Shown here in pieces: positions 9,017 through 58,918 of a stretch of 64,000 nucleotides of DNA. This DNA comes from Minisyncoccota bacterium. Lineage in GTDB: Bacteria > Patescibacteriota > Minisyncoccia > JAHIHE01 > JAGLIN01. A program made the position numbers and the translations under genes. The notes under the pieces were generated by a model, which had not been told where the DNA came from, ran no database searches, and saw only the letters and a list, made by a program, of their open reading frames with translations. Numbering within the stretch: position 1 is the stretch's first letter; each line of letters opens with the position of its first letter. The stretch spans positions 1,134 through 65,133 of the forward strand of contig JBAZUT010000008.1 in assembly GCA_041661265.1 (NCBI GenBank), in the 5' to 3' direction.

Positions 9017-9018
9017 AC

Positions 9019-33162: not shown

Positions 33163-34572
33163 ATGAAACAGGAGGCCTGGGGCCAAACAGAATCTCAGTT
33201 ACGTTTTAGCGAAGTCTCCAAGCATAAAATATACTCGTACAACATGAATTTACCCAATTATAAAAAATGCGAGGAATTTGCCGGCGTATTATTTATCATA
33301 TTTTCGGGATTGGTCATAACGGCGCTCTATAAGATCAGCAACTATATGACCTTTCCGAATCTTGATGAGCTTTTGTGGCAGACAAGATCAAGAGTATTTT
33401 GGGATAAGATCACAACATTCGATTTTTCGGGGCTCATACAATCGGCACAACCGGGGATAATGGTATATTGGTTCACGGGGTTCATGATGAAATTCGTAGA
33501 TTTCGATTTTTCATACATGAATTATCTTGTTGAAAAGGAGGAGGCTGCCGGCGGTAACTTCAATGACGTAATGAACACCAACGATCAAGCTGTATATGCA
33601 ATATATGAAAGAGTGAGCTTTCTCTTCAACTTTCCGCTGATCATGCTGATGGTTGTTTTTTTTATCCTTTTTTATTATCTTATAAGAAAAATCGGATTTA
33701 ACCGGGTCATCGCTTCTTTCTCATTGTTTTTTCTTGTTTCGAACATTTTCTTTATCTATTGGACGACTCCCAGCGACAAGATGCTGAATATTTTTATGAC
33801 TCTCAGCACGCTGACCTTTCTTGTCTATATGAGAAACAGGGCATCGAAAAAATATCTGGTTTATTCCGCAATATTCGGTTCCTGGGCGGTGCTTTCCAAG
33901 ATATCGGCGCTGTTCATTATTCCGTTCTTTTTTATGGTTTACGCGTATTATCTTTGTCCGATCGATAGAAAAAAGATCATTATTGTCTTTAAAGATGCGG
34001 CAGTCTGGGCAATTGTCTTTTGTCTGGTATCGATAATTTTTCTTCCGACAATAGTAACAAATCCTGTCGAGATCTATAATCTTATTTTTACAACCAGCGG
34101 GAATGTCTATGAAACGACCTATGGGGCCAAAAGTTTTGTATTCAAGCTGCCGGATTATCTCGGGCCGATGTTTATGATCCTCGGAAGCAGCATGTCTCCC
34201 GGCATAATCATATATCTGGTCGTTTTTGCATATCTTGCGTCGAAAAAAAAATACAGGAGCTTGTTCGATTATGGTCCCAGAAAGGAAGTTAATATTATCG
34301 GAGCATATATTATCCTTTTCATGATCGAGGTGGCGGTGCTTAGTATAAATCATGATATACGATTCATGTCCCCCGCTTTTGTCATGCTTAATATTATAGC
34401 GGGCGTGGCTTTTTATAACGTGATGGAGATCATCAGGAAAAAGCTGAATTTCGGCCTGATATATTATTATCAAATGGCAATGATCGTCATTATTCTGTCA
34501 CAGATCCTGACCATATTTTCAACCGGACTTATGATGCAAGAATTCATAAAAAAAATATTCAATAGGTCGTAA
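33163..34572 (+). CDS. GT-C fold membrane glycosyltransferase (PMT/ArnT-like; DE motif in first extracytoplasmic loop), paralog 1
   Basis: Polytopic protein with NLDELLWQTRSR...QPGIMVYWF. Paralogous to 34616..35938. True start may be downstream at MNLPNYKK. Confidence 0.5.
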   Translation: MKQEAWGQTESQLRFSEVSKHKIYSYNMNLPNYKKCEEFAGVLFIIFSGLVITALYKISNYMTFPNLDELLWQTRSRVFWDKITTFDFSGLIQSAQPGIMVYWFTGFMMKFVDFDFSYMNYLVEKEEAAGGNFNDVMNTNDQAVYAIYERVSFLFNFPLIMLMVVFFILFYYLIRKIGFNRVIASFSLFFLVSNIFFIYWTTPSDKMLNIFMTLSTLTFLVYMRNRASKKYLVYSAIFGSWAVLSKISALFIIPFFFMVYAYYLCPIDRKKIIIVFKDAAVWAIVFCLVSIIFLPTIVTNPVEIYNLIFTTSGNVYETTYGAKSFVFKLPDYLGPMFMILGSSMSPGIIIYLVVFAYLASKKKYRSLFDYGPRKEVNIIGAYIILFMIEVAVLSINHDIRFMSPAFVMLNIIAGVAFYNVMEIIRKKLNFGLIYYYQMAMIVIILSQILTIFSTGLMMQEFIKKIFNRS

Positions 34573-34615
34573 GGTCTGCGGACAATCATTGTTGGGACAC
34601 ATAAACTGATCTTAT

Positions 34616-35938
34616 ATGGCAAAATTATTTTCAAAAATAAACAAAGATGCCGCATGCCTTTTTTTTGTGGCGGCTGCGGGTTTTTTCTTTATGCTTTTTT
34701 TTAAAGAGAAACATTCCATCAGTTTTATGAACCTTGATGAATTCTTGTGGATGTACAGGTCCAGGTTTTTCATTGACAGGATCATGGGTCTGGATTTCGG
34801 TAATCTGATACAGTCTTCGCAGCCCGGGATAATGGTTATGTGGTTTGCCGGTCCATTTATGAAACTCATTGACTTTGATTTTACGAAGATCCAGCTGCTG
34901 ATCCAAAACCTGAACGAGGCCGGAGGATATAATGTCATCAATGATACCGGCAGGAACTATTATGTAGGATATGAATTTATAAGCTTCATGTTCAATATTC
35001 CGGTGATCCTTCTGATGCTGGTATTTTTTCCGGCGTCATATTCGCTTATGCGGAGGCTCGGGATCGGAAGAAGGGCGATATTTCTGTCGCTTCTCCTTAT
35101 TGCCACGACGCCCTATTATGTTTTTTTTACGACGCCCACCGATAAGCTTGTCGGAATATTTTCAACCTTAAGCATTCTTTCGTTTCTGGTGTTCCTTGCA
35201 AAAAAAGGCGGCAAAGGGTTCATCTATCTTTCCGGTTTTGTCGGTTCCTGGGCGGCGCTTACGAAGATGTCGGCTTTATTCCTTATTCCGTTCTTTCTGT
35301 TCGCGCTGCTGGTTTATGTGTTCAAGAAAAGCGATCTTGCGGACTTGAAAGTGTTTCAAAAAAAGGCGGGAGTTTGCGCGAAAGTTTTCTCGGGATGGCT
35401 TTTGGCGTTCATCGTCACGAGTATAATATTTCTTCCGACGATTATCACAGATCCGAGGCAGGTTGCCGGATTATTCATTAGGGAAAGTGATTCAAGATAC
35501 TTGATCCAGAATGCCGAGGCGCAAGATCCGGGAAGCCTTTCCCTGTTCGATTCGGTGAGGAACTATCTTGAGGACCCATTCCTCCCCTCTTTCAATTTTT
35601 TCGTTATCATGGCTTTTCTTGCGTTCCTATTCTTGATTATTCGGAGGATTGAGTATAAAATAAATGTACGAAAAGAGATCTTGCTGTTGTATATTTTTGT
35701 ATTCTCATTTCTGATCTTTTCGGCGACGTTCAGCAGAACATACTCTTTCAGATACATAATGCCGGCCCTGGTTGTTTTTCAGATAATTTCGGGATGGGCG
35801 GTTTATGAGTTTTTCGAGATATTCAGGCGAAAGAACAGTGTTTATTCCAGAAATGAGATCTTTGCCTGGGCGGTTGTTGTCATTCTCATTTCACAGGCGC
35901 TTCTTATCCACTATTCTGAAATTGCGCCGATAGAATGA
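34616..35938 (+). CDS. GT-C fold membrane glycosyltransferase, paralog 2
   Basis: NLDEFLWMYRSR...QPGIMVMWF. Polytopic. Confidence 0.5.
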   Translation: MAKLFSKINKDAACLFFVAAAGFFFMLFFKEKHSISFMNLDEFLWMYRSRFFIDRIMGLDFGNLIQSSQPGIMVMWFAGPFMKLIDFDFTKIQLLIQNLNEAGGYNVINDTGRNYYVGYEFISFMFNIPVILLMLVFFPASYSLMRRLGIGRRAIFLSLLLIATTPYYVFFTTPTDKLVGIFSTLSILSFLVFLAKKGGKGFIYLSGFVGSWAALTKMSALFLIPFFLFALLVYVFKKSDLADLKVFQKKAGVCAKVFSGWLLAFIVTSIIFLPTIITDPRQVAGLFIRESDSRYLIQNAEAQDPGSLSLFDSVRNYLEDPFLPSFNFFVIMAFLAFLFLIIRRIEYKINVRKEILLLYIFVFSFLIFSATFSRTYSFRYIMPALVVFQIISGWAVYEFFEIFRRKNSVYSRNEIFAWAVVVILISQALLIHYSEIAPIE

Positions 35939-35981
35939 TTTATTTTAGCAGATATACAAACCGGATAAATTAAGCAAACAT

Positions 35982-37280
35982 ATGAGAATTTCTATCTTTG
36001 GAACAGGTTATGTCGGATTGGTCACGGGTGCATGCCTGGCAGAGCTCGGGAACGATGTTGTCTGTTATGATATAAACGAAAAAAAGATCGGATTGCTGAA
36101 AAGCGGCAAGATCCCCATTCATGAACCGGAGCTCGAAAGTCTTGTAGCGAGAAATATCGGCGAAGGAAGGCTAAGCTTTACGCTGGATCCGAAGGAAGCC
36201 GTACGGAAAAGAGGAGCTATTTTCATCGCGGTCGGAACTCCCCAGAAAAAAAATGGAGGAGCGGATCTTTCTTATGTGGAGAATGCGGCGAGAACTATCG
36301 GCAAGAATCTTTCCGGATATGCCGTTATAGTCACGAAGAGCACTGTTCCTGTCGGCACGGGCCAAGGGATCAGAAAATTTATCAGAGAGCATTATGAAGA
36401 GGATTTTGACATTGTGTCCAATCCGGAATTTTTGAGGCAAGGAAGTGCGGTTTTCGATTTCATGAATCCGGAAAGGATCATTGTCGGAGCGAGTTCTGAC
36501 AGGTCCCAGAAAATAATAAACAGCCTCTATGATTCCTTTACATGCCCCATTTTGAACACGAATCTTGAAACTGCGGAAATGATAAAATATGCGAGTAATG
36601 CATTCCTTGCCACGAAGATATCGTTTGTGAATGAGATAGCAAATATCTGTGAAAGGGTCGGAGCGGACATCGAGGATGTTTCATATGCCATGGGTCTGGA
36701 TTCCCGGATCGGAAATAAATTCCTGAAGGCCGGGATCGGATATGGAGGAAGCTGTTTTCCAAAAGACGTGAAGGCCCTGCATAATATGGCCATGACGAAT
36801 AACTATGATTTCAAGCTTTTGAAATCCGTGATAAAGGTGAATAACGATCAGCGTCTTTTTGTTATGAGAAAAACGGAAAAACTTCTTGGAGATCTGGAAG
36901 GAAGAAGGATCTGTATCTGGGGGCTCACTTTCAAGCCGGATACCGATGATATCAGAGAATCGGCCGGAGTGGATCTTGTAAGGCTTTTTCATAAAAAGAA
37001 GACGATAATAAATGTATATGATCCAAAGGCCGACTATGACGTTGTGAGGGAAGTTTTGGGCGGAAAGATAAATATCGCATTCCATCGGGATAAATATGAA
37101 GCGGCAAGAGGATGCCATGCCCTTATCATCACAACGGAATGGGAGGAGTTCAAGTCTGCCGATCTCGAAAGAATTTCAGGATTGCTTTTTGAAGCGAATA
37201 TAATCGACGGGAGGAATATTTTCAAGGTTGATGACATGAAAAAAAGAGGATTTAATTATATTAGCGTAGGAAGATCGTGA
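35982..37280 (+). CDS. ugd: UDP-glucose 6-dehydrogenase
   Basis: MRISIFGTGYVGLVTGACLA Rossmann fold, and catalytic GGSCFPKDVKAL. Confidence 0.9.
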   Translation: MRISIFGTGYVGLVTGACLAELGNDVVCYDINEKKIGLLKSGKIPIHEPELESLVARNIGEGRLSFTLDPKEAVRKRGAIFIAVGTPQKKNGGADLSYVENAARTIGKNLSGYAVIVTKSTVPVGTGQGIRKFIREHYEEDFDIVSNPEFLRQGSAVFDFMNPERIIVGASSDRSQKIINSLYDSFTCPILNTNLETAEMIKYASNAFLATKISFVNEIANICERVGADIEDVSYAMGLDSRIGNKFLKAGIGYGGSCFPKDVKALHNMAMTNNYDFKLLKSVIKVNNDQRLFVMRKTEKLLGDLEGRRICIWGLTFKPDTDDIRESAGVDLVRLFHKKKTIINVYDPKADYDVVREVLGGKINIAFHRDKYEAARGCHALIITTEWEEFKSADLERISGLLFEANIIDGRNIFKVDDMKKRGFNYISVGRS

Positions 37281-38011
37281 AAAAAGAGAATTATGACCAA
37301 ATGAACAGATTCGAGCATCAATACTGGTGGCATGTCGGAAGAAGATTTATTTTTACAAGGCTGATAAGAAGATATGCAGCTTGTTTTAAAAATGATCTGT
37401 CGATCGTTGATGTCGGATGCGGAACGGGCGGAAATTTCGAGTTTCTGGAGAATTTCGGCCGCGTCCTTGGCGCCGACAACTCGACGTTTGCCGTTGAATA
37501 TTGCCGAAAAAAGGGCAAAACGGTCAAGCTTGTCAGTAAAGACGTGCTTCCGTTTCCGGACGGATCATGCGATCTCGTAACCGTTTTTGACGTCTTGGAG
37601 CATATCGAAAATGACGGAAGAATGATCGAGGAGTGCCGGCGCATACTCAAAAAGGGCGGAAAGATCGTGGCCGCCGTCCCCGCATATATGTCCATATGGT
37701 CCAGCCATGATGAGATCCTCGGGCATCGCCGAAGGTATTCAAAAAAGGAACTGTTAGGCAAGGTTGAGGAAAGGGGTTTCAGGACAATAAAAATAACACA
37801 CTGCATAACCTTTATGTTTCCGATCATTTTTGTTTTCAGGCTGATCAGCAAGAAATTTTCCAAGAGTAGTCGGACCAATAGCGCATATTTTATGCTTCCC
37901 GGCATTATCAACAGTTTGCTTGCTGCAATATTACGCGTTGAGTCCTGTCTTATTGATAAGATAGAAATGCCATTTGGCTGTTCGGTAGTTATCGTTGCTG
38001 AAAAGATCTGA
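37277..38011 (+). CDS. Class I SAM-dependent methyltransferase
   Basis: VDVGCGTGGN motif I; DLVTVFDVLEHI. Confidence 0.7.
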   Translation: MKKENYDQMNRFEHQYWWHVGRRFIFTRLIRRYAACFKNDLSIVDVGCGTGGNFEFLENFGRVLGADNSTFAVEYCRKKGKTVKLVSKDVLPFPDGSCDLVTVFDVLEHIENDGRMIEECRRILKKGGKIVAAVPAYMSIWSSHDEILGHRRRYSKKELLGKVEERGFRTIKITHCITFMFPIIFVFRLISKKFSKSSRTNSAYFMLPGIINSLLAAILRVESCLIDKIEMPFGCSVVIVAEKI

Positions 38012-38084
38012 TCTGTCAAAATAAGATAAAAGGATTCTGTGGTCGCGTCCGGCGTTGTGTTTCTCATAATTTCTTTTTCGTTTT

Positions 38085-39782
38085 ATGATGAATTATACCA
38101 AGGAACGGAAAGCAAGGGCATTGCTGGTCTCGATATTATTTGTCGCGATCTTCGCAAGATTTTTGTTCCTTTATGCCAGAGATGTTCCTGTTATTGCGGA
38201 TGCAGTCCTCTATGCCCAGTCCGGGAAAAACTTTATAGAGACCGGGCGGTATGCAACTTCAGGAGGCGATCTGGTGGATATTGTTTTTCCTCCCGGCTAT
38301 CCGATCGCCGTAGGATTAGCCGATCATTTTTTCAATAATCCCCTCTTTTCCCTCAGATTCGTATCTTTTGTCTTCGGGTCTTTGCTTGTGCATCTGTTCT
38401 ATCTTACCGGAAGGGAAATGAGCGGCGAGAAGGCCGGACTGTTCGCATCTTTTTTTGCCGCTACGAACTCCACTTTGATATTGTTTTCTCAGGAAGTTTA
38501 TTCCGAGTCCATGTTTTTTTTCTTCACTCTGCTTTCTTTTTATCTGTTTCTCAGGCTAAGTAAGGAACCCAAGAACAAAAATGCGGTTTTTTTCGGCTTC
38601 TCCATAGGCATGTCCTATCTTATCCGTCCAGAGGGACTGCTTTTAATGGTCCTGCCCTTTATTTTCTTATTGCGGATAATAAAGAAGTTTCAGTATGAAA
38701 TTTTATTACGCTTTCTTTTGGTCTTATTTGTCACATTTTTCGTGATGTTTCCGTATGTCTATTTTCTTTCGCAAAAGACCGGAAAGCCTGCCATTACCGC
38801 CAAAATGAGCACGAATCTGGCTGCCGGAATAAATTTCGACGGTGCGGATATGTCCCGTTTGAGCAGAGATCATTTTTTGCGGTATGAGGAAAATGAGGCG
38901 AATTATAATGAACAGACGAATGAATTGGATTATCCAAAAGAAGAGTTCAAAAATACCAGCATTCTGACCGTTCTTTTGGATAATAATTTCTCCGGAAGAT
39001 ATATTGCCGGATTCAGATCAGAGGCATATGCCTTGTCAGCCGATCATTGGGCGGGCATTCTCTTGCTGCCGATATTATTGGCTATCATTTATGCGGTCAG
39101 GGATCAGAAAAACAGAAAAAACATCCTTGTGCTTTCCATCCTGTCGGCCGAACTGCTCATAATGTTTCCGATATTCCACATTGAAAGCAGGTATCTCGCG
39201 CAGGTGCTGATATTTCTGATCCTGTTTGCTTCTTTGGGGTATGCCGGATATAAAGGTCCCGGAACCGAGTTGTTGCCAAGGAAATTCACCGTTTTCATAA
39301 AAAATTTGGTGATAGTCCTGATATCGTCAAGTTTTATATTATTTTTATATCTATCGTTCGTTACCAATGAGTTCGGGGGTTTCTGCAATTATGCTTTTTG
39401 CATCAATACCAATGTCCGTGACAGGTCATTTCCTCCCACTGAAAACAGCCTGGCATATGAATATAAAATTGCGGGAGAATATATTAAAAATAATTCAGAT
39501 AGCGGCGAGGGCGGCGGTCTTATCATGTCCAGACGGCCCGTCGAAGTTTCTTTTTACGCGGGTATGGACAGTTTGGGAATAACATTTCCCGATACCAGTG
39601 CGGAAAATGTGATAAAATTCGCTAAAGCCAACAATGTTAAATATATCATAGTGGACAAAAGATATCTTGGCGTAAGGAAAAACTATAAAGATTTGGCCAG
39701 TCTGCAAGATTTTTCGAACGACGTTTATCTTGTTTTTGAAGACAGCTCGGTATCTGACATTAAATTGTTCCAAGTCAAGTGA
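38085..39782 (+). CDS. ArnT/PMT-like (GT39/GT83-type) GT-C glycosyltransferase, paralog A
   Basis: PPGYPIAVGLADHFFNNPLFSLRFVSFVFGSLLVHLFYLTGREMSGEKAGLFASFFAATNS. Polytopic with a C-terminal soluble domain. Confidence 0.6.
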   Translation: MMNYTKERKARALLVSILFVAIFARFLFLYARDVPVIADAVLYAQSGKNFIETGRYATSGGDLVDIVFPPGYPIAVGLADHFFNNPLFSLRFVSFVFGSLLVHLFYLTGREMSGEKAGLFASFFAATNSTLILFSQEVYSESMFFFFTLLSFYLFLRLSKEPKNKNAVFFGFSIGMSYLIRPEGLLLMVLPFIFLLRIIKKFQYEILLRFLLVLFVTFFVMFPYVYFLSQKTGKPAITAKMSTNLAAGINFDGADMSRLSRDHFLRYEENEANYNEQTNELDYPKEEFKNTSILTVLLDNNFSGRYIAGFRSEAYALSADHWAGILLLPILLAIIYAVRDQKNRKNILVLSILSAELLIMFPIFHIESRYLAQVLIFLILFASLGYAGYKGPGTELLPRKFTVFIKNLVIVLISSSFILFLYLSFVTNEFGGFCNYAFCINTNVRDRSFPPTENSLAYEYKIAGEYIKNNSDSGEGGGLIMSRRPVEVSFYAGMDSLGITFPDTSAENVIKFAKANNVKYIIVDKRYLGVRKNYKDLASLQDFSNDVYLVFEDSSVSDIKLFQVK

Positions 39783-39797
39783 CGCAGGGCCTGCGTT

Positions 39798-41504
39798 GTG
39801 CTTGTGAGCTCGTTATCCGGGATGTTTTGTTTATTTAAGATCCGACAGATGCTGAAAAATATCAATAAAATCTGCAGAGGGAGCATTCCAGTGCTCCTGA
39901 TCCTGGCAATAGCTCTTTTTGCGAGGCTGGTTTTGTTCTTTCATGACGTAACCATAGATAATGACGGGATCGCATATGGACTTGCCGGAAAGAATCTGGT
40001 CGAAAGCGGAAAATATGAAGTTTACGGCGATCCATTGCTGATATATCCTCCCGTGTATCCCATAGCCATAGGGATAGTCGATCATTTTTCCGGTAACCTG
40101 CTTTTTTCCGGAAGGTTTGTTTCGCTGCTATTCGGGATGCTGCTGGTCTATGCATTTTATGCGTTTGGCAAGAAGCTTTATGGAAAGGAGGCGGGACTCT
40201 TTGCGTCTTTTTTCGCTGCAACGAATTATTCGCTGGTCGCATATTCGTCAGTGACCAGATCGGAAATGATATATTTATTCATCCTGGCACTTATTTTGTA
40301 TGTATATATTCTGCTGATCGAAAAATGCGAAGATGCCAAGGCGGCAGTTCTGGGATCGTTGATGGCAGCATTATATCTTACGAGGCCGGAAGGACTACTG
40401 ATGTGGATCTTGCCGATATTATTGTTTTATAAGCTTCTGAAAAAGACAAATATCTATGCGGCCCTGCGTTCTCTGGCTATTATTTTCTTATCGTTTATGA
40501 TAATTTCCGCCCCTTATATTTATTTTTTATATGAAAATACGGGAAGGGTGGAATTGACCGAGAAGACGAATTCCAATGTAATCCCGGCAGTGATCTTCGG
40601 AGGCAGTGCGATCGAGGATTTGAGCGGAGAGAAATGGCTGAAATATGAAAAAAGCAGAGATTATTATGACGAAGATACTAATACGATCATCGATTATAAG
40701 GAGTATTCCAATGGCGATGCGGTAAGTTATGTTTTAAAAAAACCGGACATTATTTTGAATAATTATGTACGGGGTATAAAGTCGGAAATCTCAATTTTAT
40801 TCATTGAACACGGGATCAGTCTCATACTCTTGCCGCTGCTGTTGTCTTTTTTGTTTCTGTTTAAAAAAACCAAGGAGAGGGAGAGTGTTGCTGTGTTGTT
40901 GTTAGTCGCAATCCTGTATCTGATGATAATACCGGTCTTCCATATTGAAAGCAGGTATATGCTGCAGGTACTTGTTTTTTTGATACTTATTTCTTCGCTG
41001 GGATATTCTTTCCGCACTGAGCGCGGAATTAAGGTCCTGGGTATAGAATTCAATGGCGGGGATTTTTTCCGTATTTTCAGAACGATAACATTGTTTCTTG
41101 TCATGATCCAATTTGCGTTTTCAATTGTTAATATTTATAAACAAGATGACGGCAAATTCTATCCATGGGAGTATAGGCTGGCCGGAGAATTCATTGGAAA
41201 ATATGATACTAAGGAAAACGGAGTTTTGATAATGTCCAGAAATAGTTACATAATCTCATACTATGCAAATGCCGGAAATAGCGGCATCAGAATGCCTTAT
41301 GCCGATGTCCCAAGTATCATCAGGTTTGCCAGGGAAAACAAAGCAAATTACATTGTAATTGATGAAAGGTTCCTTTCGGTGAGAGAGAATTACGACGAAC
41401 TTTGGAAATTAGATCGATTTTCAAATGATGCCGAACTTATTTTTGAAGACAGTTCCGTAATGCCGATCCGAATATTCAGATTTCGCGATGCAAATGAAAA
41501 TTAA
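39798..41504 (+). CDS. ArnT/PMT-like GT-C glycosyltransferase, paralog B (first ~400 nt identical to paralog C)
   Basis: Same family as paralog A. Likely start is the ATG at 39849 (MLKNINK). Confidence 0.6.
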   Translation: MLVSSLSGMFCLFKIRQMLKNINKICRGSIPVLLILAIALFARLVLFFHDVTIDNDGIAYGLAGKNLVESGKYEVYGDPLLIYPPVYPIAIGIVDHFSGNLLFSGRFVSLLFGMLLVYAFYAFGKKLYGKEAGLFASFFAATNYSLVAYSSVTRSEMIYLFILALILYVYILLIEKCEDAKAAVLGSLMAALYLTRPEGLLMWILPILLFYKLLKKTNIYAALRSLAIIFLSFMIISAPYIYFLYENTGRVELTEKTNSNVIPAVIFGGSAIEDLSGEKWLKYEKSRDYYDEDTNTIIDYKEYSNGDAVSYVLKKPDIILNNYVRGIKSEISILFIEHGISLILLPLLLSFLFLFKKTKERESVAVLLLVAILYLMIIPVFHIESRYMLQVLVFLILISSLGYSFRTERGIKVLGIEFNGGDFFRIFRTITLFLVMIQFAFSIVNIYKQDDGKFYPWEYRLAGEFIGKYDTKENGVLIMSRNSYIISYYANAGNSGIRMPYADVPSIIRFARENKANYIVIDERFLSVRENYDELWKLDRFSNDAELIFEDSSVMPIRIFRFRDANEN

Positions 41505-41566
41505 TTGTGATCGGAAGCGCTGCTTTTTGGGTAAATAACGATCCTTAATATATTTTTGTCCGACAG

Positions 41567-43210: not shown

Positions 43211-43228
43211 GTGGTATAAATTAAAATA

Positions 43229-45318: not shown

Positions 45319-45333
45319 TATTTTTTCAACAGA

Positions 45334-46449: not shown

Positions 46450-46481
46450 CGGCAGTTGTTAATAAGTAAAGATCCAAAACC

Positions 46482-48579: not shown

Positions 48580-48896
48580 CTATTTCGGGATAATATAAGC
48601 GGGAAGGTTTCCGGGAGGAGGTTTGGTTTATTGTATGGAAAAACAGGATTATTGCTTAGTTCTGACGAATCAGATAGTATGCTGCCAATATGATGTCGAT
48701 TTGATAACTATATTCCGTTGTTTCGGTCTATGAGGACTCGCAGGTTAACCGCAAGGATGGCCTGAATTTTTTACATTAGGTATTGTATTTGACAATAGAT
48801 GTTGTATTATCTTTATGCTATAATGGAATATGTGGATTTGGGTAAACTGAATAGTCAAGGGATTTGAGCGATAAAATGCTATAATAGTAAGATATA

Positions 48897-49823: not shown

Positions 49824-49919
49824 GCTTAGTTTGATGAGAGTTTTACTGAATATCTAAAAATGCCGTTGGAAATATATATAGTCAGCCGAAAGGTTTAGAC
49901 TGGACCGGTCATCAGCAGG

Positions 49920-51110: not shown

Positions 51111-51116
51111 CAAAAT

Positions 51117-51908
51117 ATGAATAAAATAAAGAAATTTTGGGATAATAGGGTTGACAAGTATGGGCACACCGGCTGGAGCGATAGCTCTATCTATGCATAC
51201 GATCAACAGGCTCGTCTTATGGCTGTCGAAAAGATATTACAGCTTATGGCGCTAAACGGATCAATTGCTTTGGACTTTGGAACTGGTGTGGGAGATTTTG
51301 CTGATCTGTTGTCAAGATATTTCAACAAAGTAGTTGCTTTTGATGTTTCCGAAAGTGTAATTGTCAAAGCGAAGAAAAGATACGGCAGAGTTAAGAATAT
51401 TCAATTTTTTTCCGGCGGTTCCATTGAGAATGTGCCAGTGTCAAACAAGGCGTTGGATCTTGTTTTATCCGTAACGGTGCTTGATCATATTATCGATGAT
51501 TCCGAGCTGGCAAGAACAATAAAGCATTTCCAGGGTATATTAAAAGACAACGGCACTCTTATTATATTCGAATATGCGCTGGACCATAAGAAGCAGAAGA
51601 CGCAATATCAAAGATTTATGGAACTGGAAGAATGGCGCTCGATGTTTTTGGAAAGTGGATTCAGCTTAAATAAATATTATAACTTTTATCATCCGATAGA
51701 GCATCCCTGTGACAGTTATCTGTCCTATAGAAACAGCTTTTTGGTAAAAGCACTGAACATGTTCTCGAAATATACCGCTTCTCATTTGGCAAGCGGATAT
51801 CTAAATGAATTAGCGCGTAGATACTTGAAAGGAAAGCGAGACTTTTTGATAGAGGATAATAAAGAGAGTTCTCCGATTAAAATAATGATATTTAAAAGAA
51901 ATTGCTGA
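51117..51908 (+). CDS. Class I SAM-dependent methyltransferase
   Basis: ALDFGTGVGDFADLL motif I. Confidence 0.6.
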   Translation: MNKIKKFWDNRVDKYGHTGWSDSSIYAYDQQARLMAVEKILQLMALNGSIALDFGTGVGDFADLLSRYFNKVVAFDVSESVIVKAKKRYGRVKNIQFFSGGSIENVPVSNKALDLVLSVTVLDHIIDDSELARTIKHFQGILKDNGTLIIFEYALDHKKQKTQYQRFMELEEWRSMFLESGFSLNKYYNFYHPIEHPCDSYLSYRNSFLVKALNMFSKYTASHLASGYLNELARRYLKGKRDFLIEDNKESSPIKIMIFKRNC

Positions 51909-52020
51909 TTTTTACCGCGCAGTGTAAATTTCGGGGGTTTGCCCGGGGCAGTTAATTTGAATTCCGATGATGCATTCATAATGAGCGGCAAAGTGATTAC
52001 TAACTTGATAAATTGTTTAT

Positions 52021-52674
52021 ATGATAGGAGATAATGTGCCAGAAAAAGATTATTTCATTAAATGGTATGGAGGAAGGAATTGGGATCGATATCGCGATCT
52101 GGTGGCAGGATGCATAAAATATGGCGCTCCCGGGAAGTGGCTTGATGTAGGGTGCGGCACAGGTTATTTTGTCGAATGTGCCGGAAAATTTGGGATCGAT
52201 TGTGTCGGGATAGATGGATCGGCCGATGCTGTAAATATTGCTAAAGCGCGGTGTTCCAGTCTGGACATCAGACAGCATTTTTTGGAAAACAAATTACCTT
52301 TCGAAGATGATTCTATGTCGACTATAATGTGTAATCAAGTAATAGAACATCTTTCGCTCGAAGCTGCAGATCATATGCTTTCGGAATGTCATAGAATTCT
52401 GAAGCCTCATGGGGTGATATTTATCAATTCTCCCTGTAAATATAATACAAGAGAAAGATATTCTGATGAAACTCATATAAATCTGTACACTCCCGGTTCG
52501 CTGAAGATGAAGCTTGAAAAAGCGGGTTTTAGGACAGTCGCATCGCTCAATAGTCCCATGAAGATTCTTGGTACAAACAGAATATCAAAAAATATAATTT
52601 ATCTGTTATTTAAACTGTTTCCGATCGATCACTTGTCGGCTTCGGCAAATTGTATCGCTGTTAAAGATAAGTGA
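52021..52674 (+). CDS. Class I SAM-dependent methyltransferase
   Basis: WLDVGCGTGYF motif I; ILKPHGVIFI. Confidence 0.7.
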   Translation: MIGDNVPEKDYFIKWYGGRNWDRYRDLVAGCIKYGAPGKWLDVGCGTGYFVECAGKFGIDCVGIDGSADAVNIAKARCSSLDIRQHFLENKLPFEDDSMSTIMCNQVIEHLSLEAADHMLSECHRILKPHGVIFINSPCKYNTRERYSDETHINLYTPGSLKMKLEKAGFRTVASLNSPMKILGTNRISKNIIYLLFKLFPIDHLSASANCIAVKDK

Positions 52675-53051
52675 GGACATCAGATGGGGCTGGTTGGTGT
52701 GCGGCCGGCAGGCAAGAAGCGTTATTGTTTACTGTGTCTTTCGCGCAATTAATGGATCTTCTCGTTTACAAAACATTTGTTCCCGGTTTAGAAGGTGCCA
52801 TATCGAAATATTCAATTGGCAAGTTTTCAGATATCGGGTGCGGCGATAAACTGCATGAAAGCATCGTTATATCCTGTGTCGATGAATATCGGCTTTTATC
52901 ACAAAGATATGTTTCGCAACAAGTCAAAAATTGATTTGATTGGGGATGACTATTCTTTTCCTGCAGATGATAGTTGTTTCGATACTATTCTTTGTACTGC
53001 ATAGACCATTCAGAAAGCTTTACGCGGTTGGTATTAATTAGTTGAGAATAT

Positions 53052-54518
53052 ATGAATCTAGAAAAAAGGACCATTAGGGGTCTTGGTTGGTCCGGCATTT
53101 CACTGTTTATCCGTTTGTTGTTTAATTTTGTCATAACGGCGATCCTGGCCAGAGTGCTGGTGCCGGGAGATTTTGGAATGTTTGCGATGGTTGTTTCTTT
53201 CACAAATTTCTTTGCAATCTTTTATGACCTTGGATTAACTGCAGCGTTAGTACAATATAAAGAACCCATGGAAGAGCATTTTTCCTCAGTGTTCTGGTTA
53301 AATATTTTGGCCGGTTTTATTTTAATGCTGGTGGTAATGTTGTTGGCCTCGACAATTGCCGGTTTCTATGGGGAGAGCAGGGTCATATCCGTTGTTCTGG
53401 TGTTGGCCTCGATATTCTTCATCTCTTCTTTTGGCATGGTTCAATCCGCCATATTCACAAGGCAGCTTGATTTCAAGTCTCTGGCCATAATTGAAATACT
53501 GGCAGTTTTTATTTCCGGTGTAATCGCCATAGCATTAGCTTTTTATGGGTTTGGGGTTTGGAGCCTTGTCTGGCAGCAAGTCATTCTTAGTTTCATTGCA
53601 ACGGTCTTTCTTTGGGTGTTTTCAAAATGGAGGCCTAAACTATTGTTCGAATGGCAGCGGATAAAGGAGTTGTTAGGTTTCGGTCTAAACCTCACCGGTT
53701 TCAGTTTGCTGAATTATTTTAACCGTAATTTTGATAATATTTTTATTGGAAAAACATTAGGACCCGTATCATTGGGATTCTATAATTTGTCTTATAGGCT
53801 GATGCTTTTTCCCTTAAATAACATCTCCCAGGTTATTGGCAGGGTCATGTTCCCCAGTCTTGCATTGATCCAGGGCAATAAAGATAAAATCAGTCTTATG
53901 TATATTAAGGCGACTCGACATATTGCCGCAATAACGTTCCCTTTGATGACGGGCCTTTTTTTGGTGGCGCCTCAGTTTATAAGGATAGTTTTCGGAGATA
54001 AGTGGGAAAGATCTGTTTTGATTCTTCAAATTCTTGCCTTTATCGGATTGATACAGTCAATTGGAACAACTGTGGGGTGGATCTATCAATCACAAGGAAG
54101 GATGGATATTATGTTTCGCTGGGGAAGATATGCTTCGATCATAATCGTAGCTTCTTTTATTGTGGGGGCGCAGTGGGATATAGAGGGAGTGGCTGCTGCC
54201 TATGCAATAGTTTCATTATCTCTGGCACTTCCTAATTTTATTATTCCTTTTAGGTTAATAGATCTAAAATTGTCTTATTTTATCAAGCAATTCAGATCGA
54301 TTTTTCTTTCAGCGATGGGAATGGGATTAATGGTAATATTTTCGAATGTTATAATGATAAAGTTGTCAGTAGAAAATGATATGATCATTTTTCTTACAGA
54401 AGTATTTATTGGCGCTATAAGTTATGCTATCTTCATGTCGATATTTGATAAGCCTTTGTGCAGAGACAGTATTATTTTAATCAGGCAATTGTTATATTTT
54501 ACAGATGCCGGAAAGTAA
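53052..54518 (+). CDS. wzx: Wzx-like polysaccharide/oligosaccharide flippase (MOP superfamily)
   Basis: About 12-14 TM helices; N-terminal RGLGWSGISLFIRLLFNFVITAILARVL. Confidence 0.7.
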   Translation: MNLEKRTIRGLGWSGISLFIRLLFNFVITAILARVLVPGDFGMFAMVVSFTNFFAIFYDLGLTAALVQYKEPMEEHFSSVFWLNILAGFILMLVVMLLASTIAGFYGESRVISVVLVLASIFFISSFGMVQSAIFTRQLDFKSLAIIEILAVFISGVIAIALAFYGFGVWSLVWQQVILSFIATVFLWVFSKWRPKLLFEWQRIKELLGFGLNLTGFSLLNYFNRNFDNIFIGKTLGPVSLGFYNLSYRLMLFPLNNISQVIGRVMFPSLALIQGNKDKISLMYIKATRHIAAITFPLMTGLFLVAPQFIRIVFGDKWERSVLILQILAFIGLIQSIGTTVGWIYQSQGRMDIMFRWGRYASIIIVASFIVGAQWDIEGVAAAYAIVSLSLALPNFIIPFRLIDLKLSYFIKQFRSIFLSAMGMGLMVIFSNVIMIKLSVENDMIIFLTEVFIGAISYAIFMSIFDKPLCRDSIILIRQLLYFTDAGK

Positions 54519-54530
54519 ATCTTAAAAATT

Positions 54531-55724
54531 ATGAAAGTAGTTATTCACTACAAGAACGGTTCTTATCTTGGTATTACTGAAAATTGGATATATAGCCAGA
54601 CAAAGAACCTGAAAAGATATAGGCCAATCGTTTACGCATTATGTTCGGAGAATCTGAATGTCTATCCGACCGAATGCATAAGATCATTTGGGCCTTGCAG
54701 AAAAGGATCTTCAGAGCGCAGAACGCCCCTGATGTTTCTTAACAGAATATTCAATAAAATATTTAGTTTTTATCCGATGTTCTGCTACTATTTAAGAAAA
54801 GATAAGCCCGATCTGATACATGCCCATTTCGGTCCTTCCGGGTATAGTTTTTTAAAACTAAAGGATTATTATCATGTGCCCATGATAACGACTTTTTATG
54901 GCTATGACCTTAGCATGCTCCCCCTGGAGCAGCCCAAGTGGAGAAAGAGATATAAAAAATTATTCGCAGAAGGAGAAAGATTTCTTGTTGAAGGAAGCCA
55001 TATGAGGAATTGTTTGGTGAAGTTGGGCTGTCCCGAAGAAAAAATACGCATCTTCCATCTTGGCGTGGATCTCAAAAAAATTAAATTTGTTGCGAGAGAC
55101 AAATACGCAGAAAACGGGGATATCAAAATTCTTATAGCTGCCAGTTTCAGAGAAAAAAAGGGCATACCTTTCGCAATTGAGGCGGTGGGGAGGGTGGCTA
55201 GGAAGCGGTCCGGGTTAACACTTACTATAATCGGAGATTCGAATGGAAACGACGAGGGAGAGAGGGAAAAGAAGAAGATCATTGAATTGATAGAAAAGTA
55301 TGACCTAAAGAGCAAAGTCAGGATGCTGGGCTATCAGCCGCATGATATTTTTGTGAAGGAGCTTTATGAAAATCATATTTTTATACATCCAAGCGTTCAT
55401 GCTTCTAATGGTGACACCGAAGGAGGATCTCCCGTGTCCATAATAGAAGCTTCTGCTTCCGGGATTCCAATTTTGTCGACTTTTCATTGTGATATACCGG
55501 AAGTAGTCATTGATAATAAGAGCGGTTTTTTGGTTCCGGAAAGAAATGTCGAGGCTTTGGAGGAAAGGTTGGAATTCATGTTGACTAATTGTGATTTATG
55601 GAAGAAAATGGGTTTATGTGGAAGACGGCGTATTGAGGACGAATATGATATGATAAAACAAGCCATAAAATTGGAGGACATATATGACGAATGTGTTAGT
55701 ATGAGATCAAGTTTAAAACAATAA
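54531..55724 (+). CDS. Glycosyltransferase family 4
   Basis: GGSPVSIIEASASGIPILST...FLVPE. Confidence 0.7.
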   Translation: MKVVIHYKNGSYLGITENWIYSQTKNLKRYRPIVYALCSENLNVYPTECIRSFGPCRKGSSERRTPLMFLNRIFNKIFSFYPMFCYYLRKDKPDLIHAHFGPSGYSFLKLKDYYHVPMITTFYGYDLSMLPLEQPKWRKRYKKLFAEGERFLVEGSHMRNCLVKLGCPEEKIRIFHLGVDLKKIKFVARDKYAENGDIKILIAASFREKKGIPFAIEAVGRVARKRSGLTLTIIGDSNGNDEGEREKKKIIELIEKYDLKSKVRMLGYQPHDIFVKELYENHIFIHPSVHASNGDTEGGSPVSIIEASASGIPILSTFHCDIPEVVIDNKSGFLVPERNVEALEERLEFMLTNCDLWKKMGLCGRRRIEDEYDMIKQAIKLEDIYDECVSMRSSLKQ

Positions 55725-55795
55725 TGCAGTTTTAGGGATAATACCGGAATTGACAGTCAAGGAAATTGCGCAAGGCTATGTGAAAATGATTTAAA

Positions 55796-56848
55796 ATGAG
55801 AATACCGGCGAATTTTATCAATATAAGAAGCATCATGACTAAAATACTTATAACTGGCGGAGCGGGATTTATTGCAAGCAATTTCATTCGTTATATTTTG
55901 GAAAAATATGACGATTATTCTGTTATAAACATAGACAAGTTAACTTATGCAGGAAATCTGTATAATCTGAGAGATGTTGAAAGAGATCCTCGCTATAAGT
56001 TCATAAGGGGAAATATCTGCAATAAAAAAGCGATAGAAGGGATTTTTAAGAGAGAAATGCCGGAACTTGTTGTTAACTTCGCTGCTGCGACTAATGTCGA
56101 CCAATCGATCATTGAACCTGAAGTGTTCACGGAAACGAATGTTTTAGGCGTTCATATTTTACTTGAAGCGGCGAGAAAATTCGGCATAAAGAAATTTTTA
56201 CAAATATCTACCGATGAGGTCTATGGCAGTGCAGACGAACATAAATTCAAAGAAACCGATAACATATCTCCAAATAATCCATACTCATCATCCAAGGCCG
56301 GAGCCGATCTGTTGGCGAGGTCTTATTATAATACCTTTGGATTGCCGGTGGTTGTTACGCGTTCATCCAATAATTTCGGATCATTTCAGTTTCCGGAGAA
56401 ACTAATTCCTTTTTTTATTACAAATCTTCTGGAAAATAAAAAAGTTACATTATACGGAGATGGTTCCAATATACGCGATTGGATCTATGTTTTAGACAAT
56501 TGTATCGGAATAGACATTGTTTTGCACAAAGGAAATGTCGGGGAAGCTTATAATATAGGGGGCGGGAATGAAAAGAGCAATCTGGAGGTTACAAAACTTA
56601 TTTTGCAGGAAACCGGAAAAGACGAATCTTTTATAGAATATGTCAAAGACAGGCCGGGACATGATTTTCGTTACGCCTTGGATACTACAAAGACAAGAAA
56701 ATTAGGATGGGAGCCGAAACATGATTTTGAGGAGGCAATAATTCAAACTGTTAGTTGGTATAGAAATAATGGATCTTGGTGGAAACGGATAAAATCCAAA
56801 AAGCAGTTTAAGAACTATAAGAAACAGCTCAAGGGAATATTGAAATAA
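55796..56848 (+). CDS. rfbB: dTDP-glucose 4,6-dehydratase
   Basis: ILITGGAGFIASNF, ISTDEVYGS and YSSSKAGADLL (the YxxxK motif). Likely start is at 55835 (MTKIL). Confidence 0.85.
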   Translation: MRIPANFINIRSIMTKILITGGAGFIASNFIRYILEKYDDYSVINIDKLTYAGNLYNLRDVERDPRYKFIRGNICNKKAIEGIFKREMPELVVNFAAATNVDQSIIEPEVFTETNVLGVHILLEAARKFGIKKFLQISTDEVYGSADEHKFKETDNISPNNPYSSSKAGADLLARSYYNTFGLPVVVTRSSNNFGSFQFPEKLIPFFITNLLENKKVTLYGDGSNIRDWIYVLDNCIGIDIVLHKGNVGEAYNIGGGNEKSNLEVTKLILQETGKDESFIEYVKDRPGHDFRYALDTTKTRKLGWEPKHDFEEAIIQTVSWYRNNGSWWKRIKSKKQFKNYKKQLKGILK

Positions 56849-56885
56849 GCCACAAGAAAGGCTAAACAAACTAATATAAAAGTTC

Positions 56886-57614
56886 ATGAACGTCAGTAAT
56901 GTTTGTGGTCTTATTAAAAACGAGATTCTCAGTGTCTGGTATCGAGGCGCTAACTATGAGTGTCCGTTCTGCAATAAAAAATGCCGTAAATTTTCAGTTG
57001 CCGGAATAGACAAAAGAGCGAATGCGAAATGTCCACTTTGCCAATCGTTGGAGAGGCACAGATTCCTGTGGTTATATTTGAGAAACAAAACGCCTTTTTT
57101 TGAAGAAAGGATAAAAGTGCTCGATGTAGCGCCAACTCCCTTTTTTCAGAAGATGTGCAAAAAACTTCCCAATATGGAATATGTCAGTGCGGATATATCC
57201 TCTCCGATTGCAATGGTAAAAATGGATATAACCGATATCAAATTACCTGACGAGCAATTCGATTGTATTATTTGCTATCATGTCCTGGAGCACATCACTG
57301 AAGACAGCAAGGCCATTGGCGAACTGTTCAGAATTTTGAAACGTGGAGGGTGGGCAATTATACAATCGCCGATTGATCCAAATAGAGAAAAAACATTCGA
57401 AGATCATGCGATAACTGGCTTCAACGATAGGATAAAAAATTTCGGACAGGGAGATCATGTCCGAATCTACGGGTTGGATTATATAAAGAGATTAGAAGAA
57501 GCCGGATTTATCGTAAGGATCGATGATTATTATTGTGAACTACCATCTGACATTTCACAAAAATACGGTCTGCTAAAAGATGAAAAGATATATTTTTGCA
57601 TGAAGAAAAGATAG
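56886..57614 (+). CDS. SAM-dependent methyltransferase with N-terminal Cys4 zinc-ribbon
   Basis: CPFCNKKC...CPLCQS, then a methyltransferase core (FDCIICYHVLEHI). Confidence 0.55.
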   Translation: MNVSNVCGLIKNEILSVWYRGANYECPFCNKKCRKFSVAGIDKRANAKCPLCQSLERHRFLWLYLRNKTPFFEERIKVLDVAPTPFFQKMCKKLPNMEYVSADISSPIAMVKMDITDIKLPDEQFDCIICYHVLEHITEDSKAIGELFRILKRGGWAIIQSPIDPNREKTFEDHAITGFNDRIKNFGQGDHVRIYGLDYIKRLEEAGFIVRIDDYYCELPSDISQKYGLLKDEKIYFCMKKR

Positions 57615-57645
57615 CTCTCGGCAATTAAACATTTAAGCAATAAAT

Positions 57646-58371
57646 ATGAAAGGGATAATCTTGGCCGGAGGAAATGGCACTAGGCTTTTGCCTTGTACCA
57701 TGGTGATCAATAAACATCTCTTGCCTGTCTATGATAAACCGATGATCTATTACCCATTGCGGACTTTGGCTTATGCCGGAATAAAAGAAGTTTTAATAGT
57801 CATAGGAGGTAATAATCCGGGTGATTTCGTAAAACTTCTGAAGAATGGCAAAAGTTTCGGCTTAAAGGGAATCAATTATGAGTATCAGGAGGGGTCTGGC
57901 GGAATTGCCCAGGCGCTTAGCTTGGCAGAAGATTTTGCGAATAAAGAAAAGATCGCTGTACTGCTCGGAGACAATATCATTGAGGATAATATAAAAAAAA
58001 GTGTTGAAGATTTTAAAACTCAAAAAAAAGGCGCTAAGTTGTTTTTAAAAGAGGTGTCTGATCCTGAGAGATTCGGCGTTGCGGAGATAAAAGGAAATAA
58101 AATTATTGCGATTGAAGAGAAACCCAAAAAGCCTAAGACCAAATTAGCCGTTACCGGATTATACATGTACGATAGCCATGTTTTTGATGTCATAAGGACT
58201 TTGAAGCCTTCTGATCGCGGAGAACTGGAAATTACCGATGTCAACAACTATTATATTAAAAACAGTAATGTGACTTTTGAGATATTGAGTGGATATTGGG
58301 GTGATGTCGGGAAATTCGATTCGTTGCATGAAGCGGCGGATTATGTCAAAAGCAAGCACTTTAGATATTAG
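57646..58371 (+). CDS. rfbA: Glucose-1-phosphate thymidylyltransferase-like sugar nucleotidyltransferase (short RmlA-type)
   Basis: MKGIILAGGNGTRLLP...LGDNI. Confidence 0.75.
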   Translation: MKGIILAGGNGTRLLPCTMVINKHLLPVYDKPMIYYPLRTLAYAGIKEVLIVIGGNNPGDFVKLLKNGKSFGLKGINYEYQEGSGGIAQALSLAEDFANKEKIAVLLGDNIIEDNIKKSVEDFKTQKKGAKLFLKEVSDPERFGVAEIKGNKIIAIEEKPKKPKTKLAVTGLYMYDSHVFDVIRTLKPSDRGELEITDVNNYYIKNSNVTFEILSGYWGDVGKFDSLHEAADYVKSKHFRY

Positions 58372-58878: not shown

Positions 58879-58918
58879 CTCCTTTCAAATATAATAAAAA
58901 TAATTTCTGTAATAATTT

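Follow-up and report, generated by a model that had tools for sequence, protein, structure and literature searches.

A predicted fixed-site, content-variable surface-glycan locus of Candidatus Paceibacterota with two putative assembly routes

What glycan would a patescibacterium build with 22 consecutive glycan-pathway genes, by which route would it reach the cell surface, and do these genes form a resident locus or a mobile island? The questions are raised by positions 33163 to 58371 of a stretch of 64,000 nucleotides from contig JBAZUT010000008.1, referred to here as the window. We propose that this block is probably a fixed-site, content-variable surface-glycan locus of Candidatus Paceibacterota (Patescibacteria, or candidate phyla radiation, CPR) that combines two known assembly routes. 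Its product would most likely be a methylated, amino-sugar-containing cell-surface glycan.

In the list of open reading frames (ORFs) of the window the 22 ORFs follow one another on the + strand with short gaps, and all of them fall in glycan-pathway families of Pfam and NCBIfam: five polytopic glycosyltransferases of the GT-C class, UDP-glucose 6-dehydrogenase (Ugd), an ArnC-like glycosyltransferase of family 2 (GT2), two more GT2 and three family 4 (GT4) glycosyltransferases, a DegT aminotransferase, five S-adenosylmethionine (SAM) methyltransferases, a Wzx/MOP-family flippase, the dTDP-glucose 4,6-dehydratase RmlB and a short-type RmlA. An initial annotation, made from the sequence, had listed these genes, and the ORF list and the family searches bear out its positions, strand and families. 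A co-oriented run of this kind is no chance pattern, and the block is a genuine, well-delimited surface-glycan locus. Upstream of it lie PNPase, an NYN-domain gene, S15, a tyrosine recombinase and a tRNA-Leu(UAG) (33042-33124, + strand, located with ARAGORN), the last being a conserved landmark of the 5′ side; downstream, in convergent orientation, stands an array of four pilin genes, followed by NifU and DUF4012. RmlA and the pilin genes converge on a terminator-like hairpin at the 3′ end of the locus (58443-58472, no strand assigned), read from the sequence by eye as an A-run, GAAAGGC-cgtc-GCCTTTC and a T-run. The hairpin is absent from the output of the consensus terminator scan, and neither the promoter nor the terminator scan of the locus rose above the shuffled expectation. 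Database gene calls and homologue alignments moved the likely starts of four genes, to 33244 (the first GT-C gene), 39849 (the fourth), 49965 (DegT) and about 47599 (the second methyltransferase, MT2).

The case for a fixed site comes from related loci, in which the GT-C genes are assigned to two families, A and B. In two Parcubacteria assemblies (L017 and L018) the flanks of the window surround a locus of 15 kb, and in L017 the flanking proteins are 86% (NYN), 76% (S15), 70% (integrase), 79% (NifU) and 41-64% (pilins) identical to those of the window. The L017 locus reads GT-C A, a polytopic protein of 574 residues, GT-C A, Ugd, a short GT2, one GT-C B, the ArnC-like GT2 (77% identical), GT4a (60%), another GT4, two unknown proteins and a flippase, and throughout its length it is devoid of DegT, Rml genes and methyltransferases. 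L019 shares the left flank and holds two GT-C B copies and the first methyltransferase (MT1), with no Ugd; it is cut at a contig end, and GT4a was not detected in it. L006, from a metagenome-assembled genome (MAG) labelled Saccharibacteria, runs from tRNA-Leu through GT-C A, GT-C A, Ugd, GT-C B and the ArnC-like GT2 to GT4a, GT2b, MT2 and GT2c; in L006 as in L017, the tRNA-Leu precedes the first GT-C A gene. In L020, a sister patescibacterial locus, the core is followed by orthologues of GT2c (57%), DegT (78%), Wzx (59%), GT4c (62%) and the fifth methyltransferase, MT5 (63%), and then by a pilin; its inserts differ from those of the window and comprise a FemAB-like acyltransferase, a sulfotransferase, CysD and CysNC. 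The second GT-C A copy is conserved in L006, L017 and L019. Copies of GT-C B number one in L006, L017 and L020, two in L019 and three in the window, which is the largest version of the locus seen. What the loci have in common is a 5′ core of two GT-C A genes, one to three GT-C B genes and the ArnC-like GT2, in most cases together with Ugd and GT4a, to which a variable 3′ cassette is joined. Judged by this gene order, the block keeps to one chromosomal site, its 5′ core conserved and its 3′ cassette varying, as at O-antigen and capsule loci.

Two observations accompany this comparison. An additional unannotated gene for a protein of 521-574 residues lies between the family A genes of L017 (4487-6211) and L019 (5419-6984) and is absent from the window, and L006 has an unmatched stretch (5076-7142) at that position; the L017 protein has about 11-12 hydrophobic segments and a C-terminal soluble part, with no Pfam match. 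In L005 (JAACEG010000005.1), a contig binned as 'Lysobacteraceae', a family B GT-C gene (43% identical) is followed by the ArnC-like GT2 (70%); this is probably a mis-binned Patescibacteria contig.

The five polytopic proteins were announced as a single set of GT-C paralogs. Their GT-C nature holds, but the single set does not, since they form two barely related families as judged by sequence: profile-profile alignment of family A with family B gives an hhalign probability of 46% (E 2e-4). Family A consists of A1 (33244-34572, ORF from 33163; 442 residues, without a soluble domain) and A2 (34616-35938; 440 residues), which are 36% identical over 411 residues. Family B consists of B1 (38085-39782; 565 residues, with a C-terminal soluble domain), B2 (39849-41504, ORF from 39798; 551 residues in the database gene call) and B3 (41567-43210; 547 residues), mutually 37-58% identical; a protein identical to B1 is present on three other assemblies. 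Four of the five exceed the gathering score of Pfam PMT_2 (26.1 bits), A2 barely (28.1 bits) and B3 with 50 bits, and A1 stays below it at 20 bits. B1 matches PMT, PMT_2 and Glyco_transf_22 above their cut-offs, being the sole protein with PF02366 (PMT), and B2 matches PMT_2 and Glyco_transf_22. No NCBIfam model passes for any of the five, and 'GT39 family' is the NCBI name of the family B proteins and of some homologues of family A. Because the Pfam scores of A1 and A2 are marginal, their identity has to be read from a fold model and profile searches; for family B a fold comparison was likewise needed, since a PDB sequence search with its profile gave no match at E <= 1.

Homologues of both families were collected and aligned (68 sequences for A, 24 for B), and AlphaFold AF2 models were compared with the PDB by Foldseek. 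The family A model (copy 1) has a mean predicted local distance difference test (pLDDT) value of 87 and a predicted template-modelling score (pTM) of 0.89, and the family B model (copy 3) has values of 86 and 0.87. For family A, PDB ranks 1-23 are all GT-C (probability 0.77-1.0, best E 1.3e-3, TM 0.5); for family B, ranks 1-50 are all GT-C, 30 of them at E <= 1e-3, with STT3 at 2e-8 and ArnT at 4e-7. The fold matches include STT3, AglB, PglB, ArnT, PMT, AftB, Emb, ALG3/9/12, DPY19 and PimE, at sequence identities to the solved enzymes of just 9-17%. After the first transmembrane helix (TM1), D41-E42 is invariant in all 68 family A sequences and D39 is conserved in at least 90% of the 24 family B sequences; in both models these acidic residues stand at the start of the first external-loop helix, and we infer a catalytic role for them. 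A search of 1.84 billion representative sequences with the family A profile showed the family to be compact, with some dozen 50%-identity clusters scoring below 1e-70, and reached about 900 more distant proteins at E <= 1e-10; nine of ten distant matches sampled are clear PMT_2/PMT members (E 1e-27 to 1e-38). The fold matches, the first-loop acidic residues and the reach of the profile into PMT_2 thus identify the proteins as GT-C enzymes, as the initial annotation had suggested, and not as transporters. The named homologues of family A all belong to Patescibacteria, and family A appears to be a small clade without an NCBIfam model, so far seen in Patescibacteria only. An identity of family B as N-oligosaccharyltransferase, brought up by STT3, PglB and AglB at the top of its fold list, was not adopted, there being no conserved WWDYG-type motif.

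The genes of B2 and B3 share an exact direct repeat of 395 nucleotides on the + strand. Copy 1 (39841-40235) covers 8 nucleotides upstream and codons 1-129 of B2, and copy 2 (41559-41953) the 5′ end of B3; the repeat encodes TM1, the catalytic loop and the next helices, and past residue 129 the two proteins are only 39-53% identical. An orthologue of B3 (P0122) is 78% identical to it in the shared N-terminal segment and 63-72% elsewhere. As this identity is uniform along B3, at 63-78%, the shared segment is taken as native to B3 and copied into B2, and the repeat looks like a recent gene conversion of the catalytic N-terminal module. A mis-assembly was considered and rejected: two independent short-read contigs stop about one assembler k-mer length inside the repeat, L001 (whose name carries k141) 141 nucleotides in and the Logan contig L002 30 nucleotides in, and the repeat is therefore taken as real. 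The repeats could mediate a deletion or duplication of 1,718 bp.

The GT-C genes are followed by the ArnC/GtrB-type GT2 (43229-44179; 316 residues), a putative polyprenyl-phosphate sugar synthase that adjoins GT-C genes in every related locus; this adjacency is the contextual support for a polyprenyl-phosphate-linked sugar as the predicted donor of the GT-C enzymes. Its best PDB match is ArnC (9hwj, E 2e-57, residues 6-300 aligned), with GtrB at 4e-30 and DPMS at 3e-20, and it scores 210 bits with the ArnC model PRK10714, below the cut-off of 529. Hydrophobic segments are predicted at residues 239-296, so that the likeness to ArnC/GtrB claimed for it extends over nearly the full length, C-terminal helices included. 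No other glycan gene of the locus is as well conserved; its identity is 70-79% in L005, L006, L017, L019 and L020. An ArnC-like GT2 with adjacent GT-C genes is, by analogy, the signature of three-component extracytoplasmic glycosylation, in which a GT2, a flippase and a GT-C act together (PMC11127046); in the streptococcal GacI/K/L system the Wzx-type protein GacK is proposed to flip undecaprenyl-phosphate-linked N-acetylglucosamine (GlcNAc) (bioRxiv 10.1101/180810). The initial annotation had the amino sugar delivered by this polyprenyl-phosphate carrier. That part is not supported, as the GT2 and GT-C core is kept in L017 in the absence of DegT, Rml genes and methyltransferases; on this comparative evidence the amino sugar is probably not what is linked to the lipid phosphate, and a common sugar, glucose, GlcNAc or glucuronic acid (GlcA), is the more likely donor.

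Where, then, would an amino sugar come from? RmlB (55796-56848) passes the equivalog cut-off of TIGR01181 (442 vs 365). RmlA (57646-58371; 241 residues) has 203 bits with NTP_transferase; its best PDB match, at full length, is the short RmlA of Bacillus anthracis (3hl3, 1e-76), and it scores 260 with TIGR01207, below the cut-off of 360. Together RmlA and RmlB make dTDP-4-keto-6-deoxyglucose. RmlC (PF00908) and an RmlD equivalog were found neither in the block nor among the scanned ORFs of the window, and thus both the presence of RmlA and RmlB and the absence of RmlC and RmlD from the block are as the initial annotation had them. Ugd (35982-37280) has three UDPG_MGDP_dh domains and scores 465 with TIGR03026 against a cut-off of 189.8; orthologues 65-67% identical stand at the matching position in L006, L017 and L020.

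The DegT/DnrJ/EryC1 aminotransferase (49965-51110, ORF from 49920; 381 residues; PF01041 438 bits) aligns over its whole length with ArnB (1MDO, 2e-93), its best PDB match. The lysine of FSFYVTK(199)NI, K199 of the 396-residue ORF, aligns with ArnB K188, a position occupied by alanine in the second-ranked ArnB entry 4OCA; the Schiff-base lysine for pyridoxal phosphate (PLP), on which the earlier proposal depended, is thus retained. The protein lies below all NCBIfam equivalog cut-offs: ArnB (381 vs 631), PseC (362 vs 423.5), the WecE-type PRK11706 (296 vs 375) and TIGR02379 (251 vs 435). Homologues 75-80% identical occur in bacteria and archaea, in Halobacteriota, Methanoperedens, Omnitrophota, Nitrospirae and Desantisbacteria, and are named PseC, ArnB or WecE depending on the annotation source; at the level of sequence, this spread implies unusually strong conservation and wide horizontal transfer.

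Within the block RmlB is the sole maker and DegT the sole possible user of a keto-sugar, and for this reason a dTDP-4-amino-4,6-dideoxyhexose is the economical reading. Seven loci hold a DegT 75-100% identical to that of the window. Four of them have dTDP-6-deoxyhexose genes, namely the window, L021 and L024 (RmlA/RmlB-like genes and an isomerase) and L025 (FdtA); in the other three, L020 included, no such genes were found within reach. An ArnA or a PseB/PglF-type dehydratase occurs in none of the seven. The step from the RmlB product to the amino sugar, already drawn in the initial annotation, thereby keeps its sole pairing in the block and its four loci, but it has to be set against L020, which lacks Rml genes, and against the equivalog cut-offs that DegT does not reach. 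It is plausible and unproven, and we lean towards it by a little.

The remaining genes would assemble, decorate and export the glycan. GT4a (44176-45318, Glycos_transf_1) belongs to the conserved core, with orthologues (55-60% identical) directly 3′ of the ArnC-like GT2 in L006, L017 and L020. After it come GT4b (45334-46449; Glycos_transf_1 and Glyco_transf_4, no equivalog), GT2b (46482-47525; Glycos_transf_2, with two copies at 59-61% identity in L006), GT2c (48897-49823; Glycos_transf_2 136 bits, orthologues of 55-57% in L006 and L020) and GT4c (54531-55724; Glycos_transf_1 and Glyco_transf_4, a 62% identical orthologue in L020). The Wzx/MOP-family flippase (53052-54518) has 312 bits with Polysacc_synt_3 and 319 with NF007773 against a cut-off of 273; its L020 orthologue is 59% identical.

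Of the SAM methyltransferases, MT1 (37277-38011) matches Methyltransf_11/25/23 and no specific NCBIfam family, and has a 48% identical orthologue in L019; MT2 (47599-48579, ORF from 47458) matches Methyltransf_31/25/11, and its 64% identical L006 orthologue aligns from residue 48. MT3 (51117-51908; Methyltransf_11/25) and MT4 (52021-52674; Methyltransf_23/11) have generic matches only, in PDB and NCBIfam for MT3. MT5 (56886-57614; Methyltransf_11) carries an N-terminal Cys-rich, zinc-ribbon-like segment, with a weak Zn_ribbon match and CxxC pairs visible in the sequence; in L020 its orthologue (63% identical) closes the locus in front of the pilins. PDB and NCBIfam searches with the methyltransferases returned generic class-I matches only, with no signal of a TylM1/DesVI-type sugar N-methyltransferase. 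Among six related DegT loci, four have a gene for a FemAB/Acetyltransf_6 acyltransferase directly behind DegT, where the window has MT3 and MT4. As they occupy the position of that acyltransferase, N-methylation of the amino group is a reasonable guess, and this group may be the target of MT3 and MT4.

In the model that we favour, two routes would meet in one glycan. In the cytoplasm, Ugd would supply UDP-GlcA, and RmlA and RmlB the dTDP-4-keto-6-deoxyglucose that DegT would aminate to a dTDP-4-amino-4,6-dideoxyhexose of either C4 configuration. The three GT4 and two of the GT2 enzymes would build an oligosaccharide on a lipid carrier, primed by an enzyme encoded outside the locus; the five methyltransferases would add O- or N-methyl groups, and Wzx would flip the lipid-linked product. 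The second route would be a three-component system of the Gtr, GacIKL, Arn or Ppm1 kind, in which the ArnC-like GT2 would charge polyprenyl phosphate with one common sugar and, once this is flipped, the two GT-C families would attach it, on the outer side of the membrane, to the glycan or to a different envelope acceptor. The three copies of family B would give different linkages or acceptors. Compared with the pathway sketched in the initial annotation, this model retains the passage from Rml to DegT as plausible, together with the logic of GT2 and GT-C, and abandons the amino sugar as lipid-linked donor and the label 'island'; the acceptors named there (pilins, lipoproteins, S-layer) are no more than candidates.

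Several points weigh against the model. The whole model is read from the genes of a metagenome-assembled genome, and its glycan is a predicted one. The L020 locus has the module GT2c-DegT-Wzx-GT4c-MT5 without RmlA or RmlB, and both DegT and the ArnC-like GT2 score best against Arn enzymes. As no methyltransferase or glycosyltransferase reaches an NCBIfam equivalog cut-off, we assign no sugars, linkages or acceptors. A priming phosphoglycosyltransferase (PGT), Wzy, an O-antigen-type ligase, LCP and a GtrA-type flippase were found neither in the block nor in about 40 other ORFs of the window, PF00953, PF02397 and PF04932 have no matches in the 64 kb, and none of these partners is among the Pfam families recorded for the called genes of L017, L019 and L020. 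A GtrA-like small flippase was also sought in the two larger gaps, 48579-48897 and 52674-53052, which hold short ORFs only; one of 87 codons is not hydrophobic. With PGT, Wzy, ligase and LCP not found, the Wzx route is incomplete as seen; the missing partners may lie elsewhere in the genome, or a glycolipid primer may carry the glycan, extended outside by GT-C enzymes.

Among the other explanations, protein glycosylation is the first to be weighed, although we consider it unlikely. The GT-C enzymes would be PMT/TfpW-like O-glycosyltransferases or oligosaccharyltransferase (OST)-like N-glycosyltransferases, and their main acceptors would be secreted proteins, notably the four pilins of the type IV secretion system (T4SS) type encoded downstream. 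PMT and PMT_2 are indeed the Pfam families that the GT-C proteins match, and oligosaccharyltransferases (STT3, AglB and PglB) head the fold matches of both families. The pilin array is the conserved right neighbour of the locus in L017 and L018, and at least one pilin gene follows the L020 locus before the contig ends; this adjacency may, however, be no more than general synteny, for the other flanking genes (NifU, DUF4012, S15 and NYN) show the same conservation. Both in the window and in L017, three pilins out of four have a single N-x-T sequon at the same position, but it may be a structural motif of the pilin family. Moreover, no WWDYG-type OST motif could be read in family B, and a locus with six cytoplasmic glycosyltransferases and Wzx exceeds typical single-sugar protein mannosylation systems. 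The pilin genes themselves are four tandem PF18895/VirB2-like paralogs on the - strand (58498-60112; L017 counterpart at 18699-20435), and the sequon, LN[VML]TNW, is placed just before the first hydrophobic helix; from its sequence context it may be either a glycosylation site or a mere family motif.

We are equally doubtful of an Arn-like cationic-sugar pathway, in essence the model of the initial annotation, in which the ArnC-like GT2 would load the DegT product, a 4-amino sugar and here a 6-deoxyhexose made through RmlA/RmlB instead of ArnA, onto polyprenyl phosphate, and ArnT-like GT-C enzymes would transfer it to envelope lipids or polymers and so make the cell surface less negatively charged. 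In its favour, ArnB is the best match of DegT in both the PDB (2e-93) and NCBIfam (381 bits), ArnC matches the GT2 best (2e-57) and much better than GtrB does, ArnT ranks high among the fold matches of family B, and Ugd is present. Yet the scores fall far short of the ArnB and ArnC equivalog cut-offs, and ArnA (decarboxylase or formyltransferase), ArnD and ArnE/F were not found in the window. The ArnC-like GT2 (77%) and the GT-C core are kept in the L017 locus, which as a whole lacks DegT and Rml genes, and DegT travels with the Wzx/GT4c/GT2c module and not with the GT-C core.

A lipoglycan of the lipomannan or lipoarabinomannan (LAM) type is in our view very unlikely, though it would dispense with several absent genes. 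A GT4 enzyme would make a glycolipid primer, for example GlcA- or hexosyl-diacylglycerol using Ugd-derived UDP-GlcA; the primer would be flipped and then extended outside by the GT-C enzymes with polyprenyl-phosphate-sugar from the Ppm1/ArnC-like GT2, and no undecaprenyl-diphosphate primer, polymerase or ligase would be required. This accounts for PGT, Wzy, ligase and LCP not being found in the window or among the recorded Pfam families of related loci, and the conserved core is exactly Ugd, GT4a, a GT2 resembling polyprenyl-phosphate-sugar synthases and several GT-C genes. The mycobacterial AftB, Emb and PimE are among the fold matches, and the logic of Ppm1 with GT-C described in PMC3485146 is a precedent. 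On the other side, no GT4 reaches a glycolipid-synthase model (IagA/BgsA gives just 35 bits, for GT4b), Ugd is missing from L019, and the missing genes may lie elsewhere in the genome, as the scan covered 64 kb.

A horizontally acquired island, integrated at the tRNA-Leu by the adjacent tyrosine recombinase, as the initial annotation's label and the Phage_integrase-family gene (31925-32860) and tRNA-Leu directly upstream might suggest, is rejected on synteny and carries almost no weight with us: in related genomes, whose flanking proteins have diverged to 64-86% identity, the locus is likewise surrounded by the integrase (70-71% identical), the tRNA-Leu and both flanks, no direct repeat of the tRNA was found at the far end of the block, and the GC content of the block is not distinct from that of its flanks.

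Returning to the two-route surface-glycan locus, its components are standard known families, most of them already named by automated annotation, and its value is the comparative picture, that is, the lineage, the fixed but variable architecture and a small uncurated GT-C family, and not a new mechanism. Patescibacterial genomes measure about 1 Mb, and the cells live attached to other microbes; a locus of 25 kb is roughly 2% of such a genome. The conserved site, the variable cassette and up to five extracytoplasmic GT-C enzymes point to a surface glycan under diversifying pressure. In the literature on CPR bacteria we found no description of this type of locus, and a study of Saccharibacteria pili calls their glycosylation 'unexplored' (10.1101/2024.11.25.624915). 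The locus offers concrete candidate genes in the ArnC-like GT2, the two GT-C families and the DegT module. A bolder possibility, to which we give a small chance, is a fixed and rapidly diversifying 'serotype' locus of a Patescibacteria group (Paceibacterota-type and one Saccharibacteria-labelled MAG), with lineage-specific GT-C enzymes, that would be a main determinant of host attachment and phage evasion in these episymbionts. If so, the GT-C enzymes, family A included, would glycosylate the adjoining pilins, perhaps at N-x-T, or extend a glycolipid primer into a lipoglycan, and the shared 5′ module of 395 nucleotides would be the mark of continuing recombination by which acceptor specificities are reshuffled.

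Database proteins identical to those of the block are named 'Candidatus Paceibacterota bacterium', and the remainder of the window agrees with a Patescibacteria genome, with T4SS-type pilins (PF18895), DUF4012, a VirB4/TraG-like ATPase and PrgI. A T4SS-like gene set (6959-11333 and 13853-14851) comprises a PrgI-family protein, a VirB4/TraG P-loop ATPase and a pilin-domain protein of 332 residues, and is interleaved with three paralogs of the four-helix-bundle '23S rRNA intervening sequence protein' (6959-7324, 7915-8286 and 9026-9418). On the - strand, within 17819-19280, an AbiEii-family nucleotidyltransferase toxin gene (17819-18661) overlaps an upstream ORF of 212 residues without a Pfam match, and the two may be a type IV toxin-antitoxin pair. 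Also on the - strand, an 805-residue ORF without a Pfam match (25754-28171) lies where, within the window, GC content peaks (0.45-0.47) and AT skew is most negative (-0.26 to -0.36).

How far does the locus resemble systems already described? Wzx-dependent O-antigen, capsule and teichuronic-acid loci likewise have nucleotide-sugar genes, several GT2 and GT4 enzymes and a MOP flippase, arranged like an operon at a fixed site with variable content. The nearest NCBIfam names are TuaD, TuaB and TuaG, but the scores stay below the Tua cut-offs, and the initiating PGT, Wzy, chain-length regulator and ligase of those loci are not in the locus described here. The Arn (PmrHFIJKLM) pathway for 4-amino-4-deoxy-L-arabinose (L-Ara4N) has counterparts here for Ugd, ArnB, ArnC and the ArnT-like GT-C, all in one locus. 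It differs in that ArnA, ArnD and ArnE/F are absent here and RmlA/RmlB are present instead, that the equivalog cut-offs are not reached and that, unlike in Arn, the core of GT2 and GT-C is conserved without an aminotransferase; Patescibacteria are generally described as having neither lipid A nor an outer membrane. The GtrA/B/C systems of Shigella and Salmonella, GacI/J/K/L of Streptococcus pyogenes and the CsbB/YfhO teichoic-acid systems likewise place a GtrB/ArnC-type GT2 beside GT-C transferases, and GacK parallels the Wzx-type flippase found here. Those systems have one GT-C, whereas the patescibacterial loci have up to five, of two families, and the small GtrA- or GacJ-like membrane protein of Gtr and Gac was not found in the locus. 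Finally, with mycobacterial and corynebacterial protein O-mannosylation (PMT, GT39) the likeness is in the Pfam families PMT_2 and PMT matched here, but the proteins of this locus have no MIR domains and family A has no soluble domain. The mycobacterial genes are not clustered with a Wzx route, unlike those of the locus; nevertheless, in Ppm1 and the GT-C enzymes of mycobacterial and corynebacterial lipomannan/LAM synthesis, as would be the case in this locus, one GT2 enzyme serves several GT-C paralogs.

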